The translations under genes were made by a program, and so were the position numbers. This document shows positions 251 to 58,235 of a stretch of DNA of 64,000 nt, in pieces. This DNA is from Octopus vulgaris (lineage: Eukaryota): the NCBI GenBank assembly GCA_951406725.2, contig OX597822.1, positions 9,920,001-9,984,000 of the forward strand. The letters are read 5' to 3'. A model generated the notes under the pieces. It searched no databases, was not told the origin of the DNA, and was given only the letters and a program-made list of their open reading frames with translations. Position 1 is the stretch's first letter; each line of letters opens with the position of its first letter.

Positions 251-259
251 TTTCAATAT

Positions 260-462
260 GTGAGCGCGTGTGTATCGTTGGCGATTTTCTTTCTCCGTCT
301 TCCCTTCTTTGGACTTTTTCTACATTTCTGACGAAGAGCTCCGCTCGAAACGTTAAATCCTCTTTCTTTTCTTTCCTTTCCTGCGCGTCCAAAAACACTG
401 TACTTATTCCACGTGCTCGCGTTATTGTTTTTTTTTGCTTGTTCACGTTTGGATTAACTATA
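260..462 (+). mobile_element. PLE-type terminal repeat fragment carrying a minimal hammerhead motif
   Basis: Near-identical copies at 8235-8440 and 25428-25636, partial copy at 14420-14512 (-); flanked by (TA)n; contains CTGACGA-A-GAGC-TCC-GCTC-GAAA-CGTT. Confidence 0.7.
325..357 (+). ncRNA. Minimal type I hammerhead ribozyme motif (PLE type)
   Basis: UUU CUGACGA A GAGC ucc GCUC GAAA CG UU AAA: intact core, 4-bp stem II, palindromic ACGU stem III, short stem I. Confidence 0.65.
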
Positions 463-477
463 TTATATATATTATAT

Positions 478-6884: not shown

Positions 6885-7645
6885 ATCTGTCTGTGCGCGG
6901 ACTGGCTTTGCACAGGGGCCATCCGGACTCCCGCCTTCACAGTGGACAGGGATTAATCTTCTCGCTTCGCTCTTTTGCACCACATGGGCTCATCTCATAT
7001 TCTCTCTTCCTCTGGCACCAACCTCATCTCCTCTCTTCGCTTGATACCAAACCCACACCACTTCACACACATTTGCACTGACCACTTCCCAGCACCCTCA
7101 CCACACACCAGCATGCACACTCCCACACCTACACAAGCACATAATAGCGGAAAAGAGACAAGATATACTTTCATATCCATGCAAGCACGTAATACCTAAA
7201 CACAGACTATATATGCATATACACACAATACGCATTAACACACGCAACATACATAGACAAAGATAACTTTCGCCCACATACATACACCACAGACATGCAC
7301 ACTGTTTGGTCACAGACAGACACACACACACATTTCACACGCACACCATTCTCACATATACATAAACGCACGCGTACCTTCTCTTGTTGGGATCACTAGC
7401 ACTTTATTATCTCCCTTTCATTCAACCTCTTTTTTTTTCCCAATCATTCGCCATGTTGGACTGCTGAAATTTTCAAGATTTTTTCATTCTCTCTCTCTGT
7501 TTATTTCATCTAATTCCTTTCTGTTGAAGAGCGTAGACTCGAAACGTAAAAGACTTTTTCTTTTTTCCTGAGCGTCAAACTAATACACTTGCCTCTTGTT
7601 TATACACCTGCCTTCATCTCATGTTTTTCTATCAATTTCAACTAT
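6885..7645 (+). mobile_element. Penelope-like element 3' end (GIY-YIG C-terminus, UTR, hammerhead)
   Basis: Encodes QGLIFSLRSFAPHGL, matching the RE..I..L....P.GLN end of PLE GIY-YIG endonucleases; hammerhead motif at 7517-7552; ends in (TA)n; second copy at 28491-29285. Confidence 0.75.
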
Positions 7646-8220: not shown

Positions 8221-8234
8221 CATACATACTTTAT

Positions 8235-8440
8235 GTGACCGCGTGTGTACCGTTGGCGATTTTTTTCCCTCTAACTTCCCTTCTCTGGATTTTTCCTTCT
8301 CCTATGTTTTCGACGAAGAGCTCTGCTCGAAGCGTCAAACCCTCCTTCTTTCCTTCTTTCCTGAGCGTCCAATAATACTATATTTGTTCCACGTCGTCGC
8401 GTTGTTGTGGTCTTTTGTGCTTTCTTGTTTGGATTAACTT
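8235..8440 (+). mobile_element. PLE-type terminal fragment with decayed minimal hammerhead
   Basis: Homologous to 260-462. Confidence 0.7.
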
Positions 8441-12632: not shown

Positions 12633-12689
12633 ATAAAATAATATCAATAATATATATGTATATATATATATATATGCATGTATGGGTAT

Positions 12690-13215
12690 AGGACGTCACA
12701 AACAGTAAACAACATGAAATACGAAAATAAAGTTGAATACGCAAACAACGAGAGAAACAATGGAAAACAGGAGAAGAAACTAAAGAATGACCCTTCATCA
12801 GTTGTCGGCTGCCTATCTACTCCTCATTTCGAGCATTGAACGACAATATGAATCTCGAAAAGGCAGTTGCTCCTACAAATAGCAAAATAATATTTGGGAT
12901 TTATGGAGGGTCAAAGTTGGGAACAAAAACAGGACAGTGGGGATGTATAAGAAAACCGAACGAAAAGAAACACGGAAGATCGTTAAACCCGAATGAGTGT
13001 AAGATAGCGAACGCTGGAGAAATATTTTCTTTGACTTAGAAGAGAGAAGTATATAGATGCGCCCAGCCTCTAGGACAGCCCTGAAAGCAAAGAAAGAGGG
13101 ACGATGGTCACGTGTGAGCAACGAGAGAGAGATGAAAGGAGAAAGAGGAGGAGAGAGACAAATAGAAAACGGTGAAGGGGAAAATGGAATTAGAGAAAGG
13201 ATGAGAGAGAAAACG
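12690..13215 (-). mobile_element. PLE-type terminal fragment with permuted hammerhead
   Basis: Pyrimidine-rich body between TA-rich tracts; T-rich 3' end like the other PLE termini. Confidence 0.55.
12788..12913 (-). ncRNA. Non-circularly permuted hammerhead candidate, copy A (best preserved)
   Basis: P2 GAGCA/UGCUC, P3 UUCAU/AUGAG with extension CUGCCU/AGGCAG, AUA site, P1 UUGUCG/CGACAA, CUGAUGA, closing helix UGACCCU/AGGGUCA. Confidence 0.7.
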
Positions 13216-14360: not shown

Positions 14361-14420
<60 letters not shown>

Positions 14421-14534
14421 AAGTTAATCCAAACAGGAAAACAAAAAAAACACAACAACGCGAGGACGTGGAACAAATAAAGTATTATTGGACGCTCAGG
14501 AAAGAAGGGAAGAAGATACGCATACGCACACATA

Positions 14535-25365: not shown

Positions 25366-25427
25366 ACTGTTCTTTCTCTCTCCCAAATTAAACAAGTATG
25401 TCAGTTAGAGTTGATATATATATAAAA

Positions 25428-25632
25428 TGTGACCGTGTGTGTACCGTTGGCGATTTTTTTCCCTCCGTCTTCCCTTCCTTGAATCTTTCCTTTTCCTATG
25501 TTTCTGACGAAGAGCTACCCTCGAAACTTTAAATCCTCCTTCTTTCTTTCCTTTACTGAGCGTCCAATAACACTGTACTTGTTCCACGTCCTCGCGTTGT
25601 TGTGTTTTCTCCTAGTGTTTTCATGTTTGGAT

Positions 25633-25636
<4 letters not shown>
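25428..25636 (+). mobile_element. PLE-type terminal fragment with minimal hammerhead remnant
   Basis: Homologous to 260-462; CTGACGAAGAGC at 25504. Confidence 0.7.
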
Positions 25637-25697
<61 letters not shown>

Positions 25698-46633: not shown

Positions 46634-47378
46634 TATATATATATATATATATATGGAACAAAAACGCAATCGAGGACATTAAAACATTCGGACAGATAGA
46701 CAACACAAAGACGGACAAGAGAAAGAACAATTAGAAGGACAGGCAAAAAGACGGGTTATTTTTGGCTTCTTTTCTTCAGTCAAGTTCCAGAAGTCACGAC
46801 CATTTCGGACAGTTACACTTGAGATGGTTCGATCTGGTTGTCTCACAAAAAGGCTAAGCTAAGAGCATTAGACCCCTTTGTAAGAAAGCTAGCGAATGTG
46901 CATGGCAACAAAGACAAAAAAAAAAAAAACGGAGAACATGGTACAGGATTTCGAATACAAACAAAAATAACAACAGGCGTCTTTCGACTGAGAACGAGTC
47001 AAGTTGAGCAGGCGTGTATGAAGTGAAAGCCTAAAGGCAGGAACATGGGAGATGGACACAAGACGTGTTGACGGTCGGCAGTCAGGCCAAGAATGATCAT
47101 GGCTAGCCGGACACCAGTCACATGGAAAGAGGATTATTGGGTAGGGGACAGCGGGATTGAAGGATTAGAAACAAATCAGAGACAAAGGGAACGATGCAAA
47201 GGAGATAAACGAGCGGGAAATAGTGGGAGTTAAAGAAAGAGGGCGAAGAAATGAGAGAGGGGGAGCGAGAGAAAGGAAGAAAAATGAGATGGGGAATAAA
47301 AGAAGATAGAGTAAGAGTCGTACAAAATTTAGATGCATACCTACTATAAGGTGAACACAAGGGTGTACCTACGCCGCT
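46634..47378 (-). mobile_element. PLE-type terminal fragment with permuted hammerhead
   Basis: 46634-46963 is the reverse complement of 50432-50745; flanked by (TA)n. Confidence 0.65.
46760..46864 (-). ncRNA. Permuted hammerhead candidate, copy C
   Basis: AGACA/UGUCC (one mismatch), CCAGA/UCUGG, ACCAU/AUGGU, AUC site, UCAAGU/ACUUGA, CUGAAGA. Confidence 0.65.
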
Positions 47379-48018
47379 ATATATATATATATATATATAT
47401 ATAAATGGAATAAAACGCAATAGAGGTTATTAAAAACGTTCAGACAGATAGATGACACAAAGGTGGAAAATTAAAAAAAAATAATTCATCAAGTGGTCAG
47501 CATATTAAAATACATTTTAAGGTGAAGATTATAAACAATTATATACAAGGGCAAAAAAAAAAATTCTATGCCAATATACTGATAAATAGACTTCAAATCG
47601 TCAACCGCCACATACAATATGCATCACTATAAATACACATCCTGTTGAATCGAGTTATCGCTGTATCGATTGATTTCAGGTTTAATCCAACGGATATTTT
47701 CTTCTGCAGAGAATACGATAAGAAATAATGAAATACTTACAAGCACCCATGGAAAAAAGCAGAAGCAAAGTCATGTGTACACATAAGTACCCAAAATATA
47801 TCTAAATATAAATTCCGTAGCAAACCTTAACACACGTGTAATCGGTAAAGAAGCATATATTTAGATATATATTCCTTCTTTATAAAGAATTAAAAAAAAA
47901 TAAAGAAGGAAACAAGTGGAGAGAATGACTCTCCCCAGACACAAGAGTATATGCTTCAACACACAAACTCACATAAAGAATCTTGCAATCTTATGTATAT
48001 ATATGTGTATGTGTGTAT

Positions 48019-50431: not shown

Positions 50432-50745
50432 TTGTTTGTATTCGTAGTTGTGTACCATGTTCTCCGTTTTTTTGTTTGTTTTTGTCTTTGTTGCCGTGCA
50501 CATTCGCTAGAATTCTTACAAAGGGGTCTAATGCTCTTAGCTTAGACTTTTTGGGGGACAACCAGATCGAACCATCTCAAGTGTAACTGTCCGAAATGGT
50601 CGTGACTTCTGGAACATGACTGAAGAAAGAAAGCCAAGAATGACCCGTCTTTTTGCCTGTCCTTCTATTCGTTGTTTCTCTTGTCCGTCTTTGTATCGTC
50701 TATCTGTTCGAATGTTTTAATGTCCTCGATTGCATTTTTGTTCCA
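50432..50745 (+). mobile_element. PLE-type terminal fragment with permuted hammerhead
   Basis: Same family as 46634-47378. Confidence 0.65.
50535..50639 (+). ncRNA. Permuted hammerhead candidate, copy B
   Basis: GGACA/UGUCC, CCAGA/UCUGG, ACCAU/AUGGU, AUC site at 50576, UCAAGU/ACAUGA, CUGAAGA at 50620. Confidence 0.7.
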
Positions 50746-52560
50746 TACACACACACACACAAATACATACATATATTTATATGTATATATATATATATTT
50801 GCATATATGGGTGTGTATATATACTTGTTTGCACTTATGTATATATGTATGCATGTATGTATATATATGCATGCATACAAATGTGTATGAATGAATGGGT
50901 AGATGGATGTGTGTTTGTGCATGCATGCATTTGTTAGATAATTTGACATTATTGTATGACCGTGGAATAAAATAGTTAGTCATAATGATGTTTGTTCTCG
51001 CTCTGTGGCATGTGAGCTCAAATCCAGTAATTCTTCCTCGCTTGAATAAATAGCGGAGCAGTCCAAGAAGTCACCAACAGTCTTTGCACTCCTTGAATAA
51101 AGTATTATTAATAAACGTATTCTAGTTTCCATTACGCTTAGTGGTAGCACAGACATACAGTACCATAGATTCACGAAGTTTGACATTCTAGAATTCACAC
51201 TTTTCATAACTTAATATTTCTTCACAAATTCTTAAATCTGAAATGAAGATCATTATGCAAACGAGGCAATCTCTATTAGTTTTCAATATCTCACTTCGAG
51301 TACTGAAAAAAATGAAGTGTGATTTGATGTTCCTTGTGAAGGCACTGTAGTGTTGTATTATGCGAACTTTATTGGATTCTATATTTTAAACCTTTTGATT
51401 ATCATATTTTCTACGTTTAAAACAAATAGTGGTTTTATTGTTTCGGGCAATATAAACACAGTCATGAGCTACAAAGATTTAAGAAAAGAAACTGCATAAA
51501 ATTATTTAATGGAAGAGATTTAAGAATTGTAGCTGGCACTGAGCTCGCCAAAGATAATTATTTGGGTATAGCCTTAAACTTAGGTACGAATTTATTCTAC
51601 ACATGCCGAAATCCTACAGAAAGATTGATATTTAAGCAAAAATTCGAATCTCATTCACTCTGTTGTGATACGAAATTTCATCCCCAAATTTGTTATCTTC
51701 ATATGAGGCCACATTCATTGGTGCTTCACAAAACTAGAGTGAACCAACTCGTTATAGAAATAAATTAGAAAACATAAAATGCTTAAATGCTCCCAGCCTG
51801 AAAATTAACAAAGAAAGATCATATAGCATAATCCAGTCTCCAGTTTAAATGTGCTGACCGACATTGCTGGCCAGAGAGAAGAGCAGCCACCACAACGCTA
51901 TAAAGAAGCGAAGAAGTTATCCTTAAATCACAGACCTAGCCAGGATGCTGGCAATAGGGTAAAATCTACTAAAAGAAATCATTTAAGCGAAAAGTTATTC
52001 ATATAATTTCAAGATATTGATGAATTAAATGCGCGATCAGAGATGTCAGGCCATGGTAGACTTAAATCGAAGTATATACTTAGCAATTATGTACTCCTAA
52101 GTAACTTACTCTGTGTGTTCTACGGATGGTTAACTATTAACTTTTATCACTTACAATTATTAAAAAAAAAAAATTGACTCCTAGATAACTCAAGTTATTT
52201 CTCTTGCAATGTTACATTTCTTTTGCGCACATATAAAGATCCAAATTTTACATTTGTGCAACACTACATAAGTATGGTTTTTATACACATTTAATTTTCT
52301 TCTATCCGACACATCATTTTGTATCATTTATATCTCTCATTCTAAGTGTCAAACGCTTCTCGCTTTTCAAACAACAGCTATATAGAATGTTTTCCCCGCA
52401 TCATCCAATCGGTGTCCGTTACGATATTTAAACATTTTGACTGCATGCCTGTTGTATATCAAATTTCCGCTTACAGCTTTTTTATAATCATCCAAACATC
52501 GCAAGTAACCATTTATAATTACGACTCATAGACTGTAGTACTTGCAATATCTTATATATA

Positions 52561-57139: not shown

Positions 57140-57316
57140 TATATATATATATATATGTTGTTGTTTTTGTCTCCTTTGGTCTAAAGTCGTATGACAACCA
57201 TCGTTATATATATTTTGTTTATTCATTACTGTTTTCAATTTCGTTTTCGTCTCTTGTATTTACATCCGTCTTGTGCGTTCACATTCCTGTCTTCTACCAA
57301 GAAATCTAATGCTTAC

Positions 57317-57420
57317 AGCTTAGTTTTTTTTCTTGGGGCTGGCCGAGTTGGAGCAAATATCAGAATTGAACAGCCGAAATTTGCTATGATGATTCGGTGT
57401 GTGACTGAAGATTGAAGGCT
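57317..57420 (+). ncRNA. Permuted hammerhead candidate, copy D (in repeat fragment ~57157-57475)
   Basis: GGCUG/CAGCC, CCGAGUU/GAUUCGG, AGCAAAU/AUUUGCU, AUA site at 57359, UCAGA/UGUGA, CUGAAGA at 57405. Confidence 0.65.
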
Positions 57421-57600
57421 TCGAATGATTTGTCTGTGTTCCGTGTTCGTCCCTTCCTGTATTTCACGTTCATTATATATAAAAACATTCATTCTTATAT
57501 ATATATATATATATATTAGAAGAAATGAGGTACTCAGAAGATCGGATGGTTTATATTTACAGATATTTATTTGTATATTACATTTTTTATACATCATATA

Positions 57601-57728
57601 ACTTAGATCATTAGCGCTTTCTCCCATTCTAGTGGGGTTTTCAAATCAAACTTAGTTTGATTTGAAAAACCCACTTAGTTTGATTTGAAAACCCCACTAG
57701 AATGGGAGAAAGCGCTAATGATCTAAGT
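57601..57728. repeat. Perfect 52-bp inverted repeat with partial third copy in the spacer
   Basis: 57601-57652 versus 57677-57728; 57654-57675 repeats the arm start. Confidence 0.95.
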
Positions 57729-57845
57729 GGGGACAAGAACGCAAAACATTCGGACAACTTGGTGAAACAAAAGGAGACAACAAAATCAGATAGACAATAC
57801 AAAAAAAAAAAAAAAAAGCACGGACGGGTCATTCGAAGACTTTTA

Positions 57846-57896
57846 TCTTCAGTCAAGAACCGGATCATCCTCGCGATTTCGGCTGATTAATCTTGA
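57846..57896 (-). ncRNA. Permuted hammerhead candidate, copy E (3' cleavage-product half only)
   Basis: UCAAGA uuaau CAGCC GAAA UCGCG...GAUCCGG u UCUUGA CUGAAGA; abuts (TA)n at the predicted scissile bond. Confidence 0.6.
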
Positions 57897-58235
57897 TTAT
57901 ATATATATAACGTATGCAAGTGTGTGATTCTATATATTACATATTCATTATTTTCTTCATGTGGTATAATTGAGGAGTATTTCTGACATTTTTAAAATTG
58001 ACATAGGCGTAAAATCATAGCACCGATGACCTTAAGTTTCGTTGTGGATGCTGTACATATTAATTATAGTTGGTTCGTAAGTTGATCTGCATTGATCCAC
58101 TGTAGAGCTATACATGGACACACTCACACAACACCCACACACACATTAATATGTGTTTTTAGGTCGAGTCACTGTGCGTGAGTGTGTGTATGTGTATGAG
58201 CGTGTGTGTGTATGTATAGACATAAATATGCTTGC

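Follow-up and report, generated by a model that had tools for sequence, protein, structure and literature searches.

A repeat copy in Octopus vulgaris that starts at the predicted cut site of a putative rewired, Naiad-type hammerhead

Family copies in the window and the 5' boundary of copy A

The window analyzed here is a stretch of 64,000 nucleotides of Octopus vulgaris DNA (assembly GCA_951406725.2, contig OX597822.1, positions 9,920,001 to 9,984,000 of the forward strand), and its SINE and microsatellite content resembles that of octopus genomes. It contains several pieces of a repeat family that carries a predicted hammerhead ribozyme motif, among which the related copies A to D were found by BLAST and core scans. 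The family pieces and two further repeats are listed below in positions of the window.

57730..57896, minus strand: copy A, the 167-bp 3' part of the repeat, its first base being hammerhead position N1.1 (contigs have loose ends behind 57896 and before 57730)
57160..57482 (ends approximate), plus strand: copy B of a sister subfamily, spanning the predicted cut between 57359 and 57360
50432..50747, plus strand: copy C, spanning the predicted cut between 50576 and 50577
46652..46964, minus strand: copy D, 92% like copy C, spanning the predicted cut between 46823 and 46822
12680..13215 (ends by eye, between TA tracts), minus strand: copy F of a distinct subfamily with different stem letters, spanning the predicted cut between 12847 and 12846
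47402..47470, minus strand: 3' fragment of the C/D subfamily that starts ~104 nt 3' of the cut and serves as a control for truncation away from it
57526..57728, no strand: short repeat of high copy number that contains a fold-back duplication (arms ~57601-57655 and 57674-57728) and abuts copy A directly at the 3' end of the latter
255-472 (plus), 8232-8439 (plus), 25424-25658 (plus), 14401-14514 (minus) and ~7518-7600 (plus): second short TA-flanked family, with the canonical minimal type-I Penelope hammerhead

The copies measure 70-540 bp, are mostly TA-flanked and carry the motif ~120 nt from the 3' end, and the predicted cut is spanned by four of the six family pieces. The motif of copy F lies at 12776-12895 (minus strand) inside a TA-flanked piece of ~540 bp, whose upstream words resemble, by eye, the 3' UTR of Naiad_Obim. 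Upstream of the motif, copies B, C and D share a conserved CTAAT...CTTAG stretch (57307-57324, plus; 50528-50549, plus; and ~46850-46872, minus, respectively) that forms a small hairpin and also resembles a branch point with a 3' splice site; introns of Penelope pLTRs end near the hammerhead. In the second, type-I family four of the five copies extend across the cut; the remaining one, at 14.5 kb, is truncated and begins, by eye, ~7-8 nt 3' of its predicted cut. Both arms of the fold-back repeat at 57526-57728 lack the same four letters, which are present in the family contigs, so one arm was copied from the other.

Copy A reads on the minus strand from its 5' junction through the 3' strands of the motif and into a T-rich tail, which runs from the core to 57730, where TA-rich loose ends were found in 26 contigs of run X2. 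Its parts are as follows.

57897..57909, no strand: one extra base (57897) and (TA)6 at 57898-57909, followed by single-copy flank according to contig depth
57896..57897, minus strand: junction, equal to the predicted scissile bond between C17 and U1.1, with no microhomology to the upstream sequence of the family according to the run contigs
57891..57896, minus strand: P1a (UCAAGA), which pairs with P1b at six of six positions in a core-anchored pair count
57873..57885, minus strand: P2b (57885-57881), G12-A13-A14-A15.1 (GAAA, 57880-57877) and P3b
57846..57864, minus strand: I strand (57864-57860), P1b (57858-57853) and core CUGAAGA (57852-57846)

A preliminary description of this DNA had placed the minus-strand start of the copy, UCAAGA, directly against a (TA)n tract. 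These letters do occupy 57896-57891, but a single A (57897) intervenes before (TA)6. The same description was right in that P2a and P3a are missing while everything 3' of the predicted cut is kept, and the I' strand is absent as well. Consistent with this loss, P3 pairs at one of five positions in copy A versus 20/20 in the four intact copies (core-anchored count), and 16 letters taken from the absent 5' part have no match anywhere in the window at up to three mismatches. Within P3b, position 57875 of copy A carries a private change that differs from >99% of the family depth. Nested folding of copy A alone yielded a z-score of -0.25, the motif being crossed and copy A being without its 5' strands. 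CGTT and a TA run occur together both in the 5' flank of copy A (57899-57912) and in subfamily B (57202-57213, ~155 nt 5' of the cut), probably by chance.

The boundary was checked with contigs of four public runs (X1, X2, X4 and X9, out of 24 listed), which were placed on 57160-58130 with a likeness cutoff of 80%. Each of the four runs has contigs that diverge from the reference behind 57896 (22, 20, 45 and 12 contigs; consensus agreement 0.67-0.88), and the diverging letters, taken in the orientation of the element, contain the strands that copy A lacks: GGCUG as P2a forms five of five pairs with P2b, CCAGA as I' forms four of five pairs with the I strand, and GCAAU as P3a, followed by C17, forms five of five pairs with the family-majority P3b. 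At 57897 of the plus strand the family has G and the window has T; because the two differ at the first base beyond 57896, the break lies exactly between C17 and U1.1 without microhomology. Single-copy contigs cover 57881-58130 without a gap in three of the four runs (X1, X2 and X4), a hint that the junction of copy A is not an assembly error, with just 16 element-side letters held by these contigs, below the 31-letter bar for bridging. The start of these contigs at 57881 instead of 57867 was considered as a hint at other sequences with the same junction and was rejected, since chance truncations in a family of this size would give the same branch.

The predicted hammerhead in the window and in Naiad 3' ends

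From 5' to 3', the motif comprises P2a, I', P3a, UH, the cut, P1a, a short linker, P2b, GAAA, P3b, I, P1b and CUGAnGA. Both halves of the core, C3-U4-G5-A6-N7-G8-A9 and G12-A13-A14-A15.1, are present in all five motif copies, and the spacing from N1.1 to G12 is 16 nt in each of them. The letters before the cut, which include U16.1 of the U16.1-A15.1 pair and H17, are AUA, AUC, AUC and AUA in copies B, C, D and F, and AUC in the subfamily of copy A as read from contig loose ends. The 5' strand of stem II does not follow A9; instead, in B, C, D and F, P2a precedes the cut by 21-26 nt, and no conserved partner of P2b was found by eye after the core in the window copies. The motif departs from the canonical type-I order of Penelope pLTRs with its minimal palindromic stem III.

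Closer examination of the pairing revealed four covarying helices. In the core-anchored count, paired cells numbered 27/30 for P1, 19/20 for P2, 20/20 for P3 (copy A left out) and 20/20 for I, while two-sided changes were seen in five of six, four of five, three of five and four of five columns, respectively. The MAFFT alignment gave 12 of 18 pairs that change on both sides, compared to one to four when the partners were slid. We preferred the core-anchored count, as MAFFT offsets the 5' strands of copy F; the sample in both cases consists of five related copies from about four subfamilies, with C and D 92% alike. A descriptor written from copies A to D matched three loci in the window (B, C and F, the last of which had not been used in writing it) and had no match in 300 block-wise dinucleotide shuffles. 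Copy D was missed by the descriptor, its G10.1 being changed to A.

Two candidate elements of the fold were examined and rejected. A P2a strand downstream of the core had a partial match in copy B only and showed no conservation, and a fourth helix that would close the opening between A9 and G10.1 was weak and inconsistent in B, C, D and F (-4.3 to -7.6 kcal/mol, in different registers). In an Rfam scan of the window, the 150 matches listed out of 319 included no hammerhead family. A 22-base degenerate pattern was absent from the genome contigs and from the viral contigs searched, and its one match in a metagenome contig (L001) was judged to be chance, given a GC-rich bacterial-type reading frame and no 5' partners.

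Naiads are Penelope-like elements that often target (TA)n and have been reported to be without canonical hammerheads; in the parts of that work consulted, the supplement flags core words only, eight as 'half core' (HHR_half_core) and ten as 'core' (HHR_core) (Craig et al. 2021, PMC8557442). The last ~380-420 letters of all 54 Naiad consensi in its File S5 were read by eye. Within these letters, the window layout with different stem letters was recognized in nine of the 54 ends, from four phyla and with about six independent stem sets. These were Obim and Ovul (cephalopods), 2_Movir, 3_Chem, Amil, Aacu and Anas (cnidarians), Plae (acanthocephalan) and EuTe (crustacean), with 13-17 nt from N1.1 to G12 and the motif located, where seen, 80-200 nt from the published 3' end. 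A partial fit was noted for two more, Esco and Bfor. Six ends, all from nematodes (1-3_Nbra, Hcon, Hpol and Asuum), have an intact type-CSG order with an I helix, and the other 37 have neither arrangement within the part read. The bivalve and hemichordate 3' ends of File S5 carry other conserved words that do not form a hammerhead layout.

The cut site and strand assignment that had been predicted from the window hold in light of the covariation in the five window copies, the read-derived 5' partner for the subfamily of copy A and the same layout in the consulted Naiad 3' ends. As a prediction from sequence, we consider the cut site credible.

Origin of copy A

Copy A represents the final 167 bp of a TA-flanked repeat of high copy number, likely a derivative of a Naiad-type Penelope-like element, and the reading that we favor is that reverse transcription probably produced it from an RNA already cut by the predicted hammerhead of the element, and ran up to the 5' end of that RNA. 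In general, the window copies probably represent either 3' fragments of such an element or non-autonomous derivatives. In the proposed course of events, the fold would work as a hammerhead despite the break between A9 and G10.1, with an upstream strand serving as P2a and held beside P1b by helix I. The 3' cleavage product would retain the 3' end of the element and would serve as a trans template for target-primed insertion by a Penelope-type reverse transcriptase. The cDNA would then run off the cut end and become attached to a TA tract, and the additional A at the junction would be either untemplated or derived from the target. Uncut RNA would be the main template under this scheme and cut RNA a minority route at most.

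That reverse transcription ran to the 5' end of a self-cleaved RNA had been proposed from the window alone, and the proposal stands in part: the break does coincide exactly with the predicted site, but a footprint cannot be demonstrated from one copy, and most copies in the window span the cut. A cleavage origin of copy A is nonetheless likely in our judgment. Under uniform 5' truncation, the chance of a start exactly at the cut site amounts to 0.3-0.4% when one truncated copy is considered and to 0.9-1.2% when three are, before allowing for the many windows read. A structural stall of the enzyme at N1.1 would not be expected, since a reverse transcriptase moving 3'-to-5' has by then displaced all 3' helix strands. 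A precedent is provided by R2 elements, in which, according to the parts of the report consulted, the types of 5' junction follow the ribozyme cut (PMC3774820).

The strongest alternative, which we nevertheless regard as unlikely, is an ordinary 5' truncation during target-primed reverse transcription that stopped at N1.1 by chance; the fold may then be real and copy A silent on cleavage. The family is so abundant that some copies starting at N1.1 are expected by chance, the summed contig depth over copy A being 47,000-83,000x that of the unique flank (a rough value that is not a copy number). A scan of many windows would select such exact starts, and copy A is a single case that was found after the fact. 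Of the three truncated pieces of hammerhead families in the window, copy A alone starts exactly at the cut, while the other two start 104 nt and ~7-8 nt 3' of theirs, and the majority of copies span the site. For a Penelope element of Anolis, uncut RNA predominated as the in vitro substrate and RNA-seq showed no reads with either end at the cut, as far as the consulted parts of that study go (Frangieh et al. 2024, PMC11167929), which also fits chance truncation. Against it stand the exact and microhomology-free match, with a per-window chance near 1% or less, and the independent definition of the site by covariation across subfamilies and phyla.

Contig depth in subfamily B was also compared on the two sides of its cut. 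The ratio of 3' to 5' depth was 1.06 in X1, 1.35 in X2 and 1.03 in X4, with several-fold noise between bins and no clear step, and no loose end at the B cut (57360) was present among the 24 of 488 rows listed. The ratio of 1.87 in X9, as well as the X9 contigs across the cut, were set aside, X9 being only guessed to be RNA.

Far less probable is that a longer copy later lost its 5' part by deletion or TA-tract-mediated rearrangement, or that the junction arose together with the fold-back at the 3' end of copy A: the locus is indeed rearranged, with the 3' end of copy A joined to the fold-back arm of another repeat and no TA tract between them, and CGTT beside the TA run in the 5' flank recurs by eye inside subfamily B, but nothing of the 5' part is left in the window, contig depth beyond the TA run is that of single-copy DNA, X1, X2 and X4 (three organism labels) all have this flank next to identical letters of the element, and a deletion would still need to strike the scissile bond by chance.

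Significance and comparison with known systems

With reverse transcription of a cut RNA as the preferred origin of copy A, the rewired Naiad-type hammerhead is the stronger and more solid result of this analysis, while a footprint from one copy is plausible. In the published literature searched, with subscription journals mostly outside the search, we found no description of a layout opened between A9 and G10.1, of a permuted hammerhead in Naiads or of Penelope copies starting at a hammerhead cut. The wider proposition would be that another natural way of wiring a hammerhead exists in Naiads, which opens the chain between A9 and G10.1 and is a circular permutation of the type-CSG of nematode Naiads, that it cuts in living cells, and that a countable share of copies starts at the cut as a genomic fossil record of cleavage feeding Penelope-type retrotransposition. 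Taken as a whole, we advance this proposition tentatively, at slightly less than an even chance.

On whether Penelope-type hammerheads cut in vivo and whether the cut RNA is mobilized, the one direct test in the literature consulted was negative (PMC11167929). With its very high copy number and sharply defined cut, the present family makes the question accessible to plain counting of 5' ends. The motif itself would explain the 'missing' hammerhead in part of the Naiad clade, extend the range of non-circularly permuted hammerheads from environmental RNA to animal genomes and run counter to the assumption that no opening is possible within the CUGAnGA block.

Like Naiads, as far as the consulted parts of their description go, the window copies end at TA tracts (except for the 3' end of copy A) and have the motif near the 3' end; this likeness refers to the layout read by eye and to the TA ends. 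Unlike full Naiads, the window copies (70-540 bp) are too short for an ORF with N-terminal GIY-YIG, CxC and RT. As in the HDV-like ribozyme of R2, the cut would define the 5' end of the reverse-transcribed RNA (PMC3774820, parts consulted). In R2, however, the HDV-like fold lies at the true 5' end and copies are full-length, whereas the window motif is of hammerhead type, lies 167 nt from the 3' end and is spanned by most copies.

Minimal type-I hammerheads have been described in Penelope pLTRs and in non-LTR retrozymes, where they lie near the element end, have been proposed to process precursor RNA and can accommodate a single additional base between positions 9 and 10.1 (PMC4209133; PMC7229834; bioRxiv 10.64898/2026.07.22.740005; PMC11167929; each in the parts consulted). 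The window hammerhead shares the location near the element end. The type-I motifs have a tiny stem III and work as dimers, in contrast to the 5-7 bp stem III and crossed helices of the window motif. A genomic or RNA 5'-end peak at the cut of these type-I hammerheads is not reported in the portions of the literature consulted, and the Anolis test was negative.

The closest resemblance in the order of blocks is to types SGC and CSG, which are crossed hammerheads with a short linker between stem I and stem II and an extra helix I, and which cleave in vitro (Eckert et al. 2023, PMC10085705). In the consulted parts of that paper, the blocks are assumed to be uninterrupted, including CUGAnGA with its flanking strands, and six layouts are tested or proposed; the SGC and CSG examples stem from metatranscriptomes or metagenomes, none from the genome of a known organism, and type-CSG from just two metagenome sequences. 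The window motif has the same crossed circular order of blocks S, G and C with the full core, the extra helix that joins the other sides of stems I and II (20/20 cells) and the short linker. Unlike SGC and CSG, it is interrupted within block C, between A9 and G10.1, and has P2a and I' 5' of the cut; an opening at this place falls outside the six layouts. Since its ends lie inside block C and not between blocks, we file the motif as neither SGC nor CSG. Activity of those types is proven in vitro, while that of the window motif is predicted from its letters, and by this prediction it would work in the same way as SGC and CSG.
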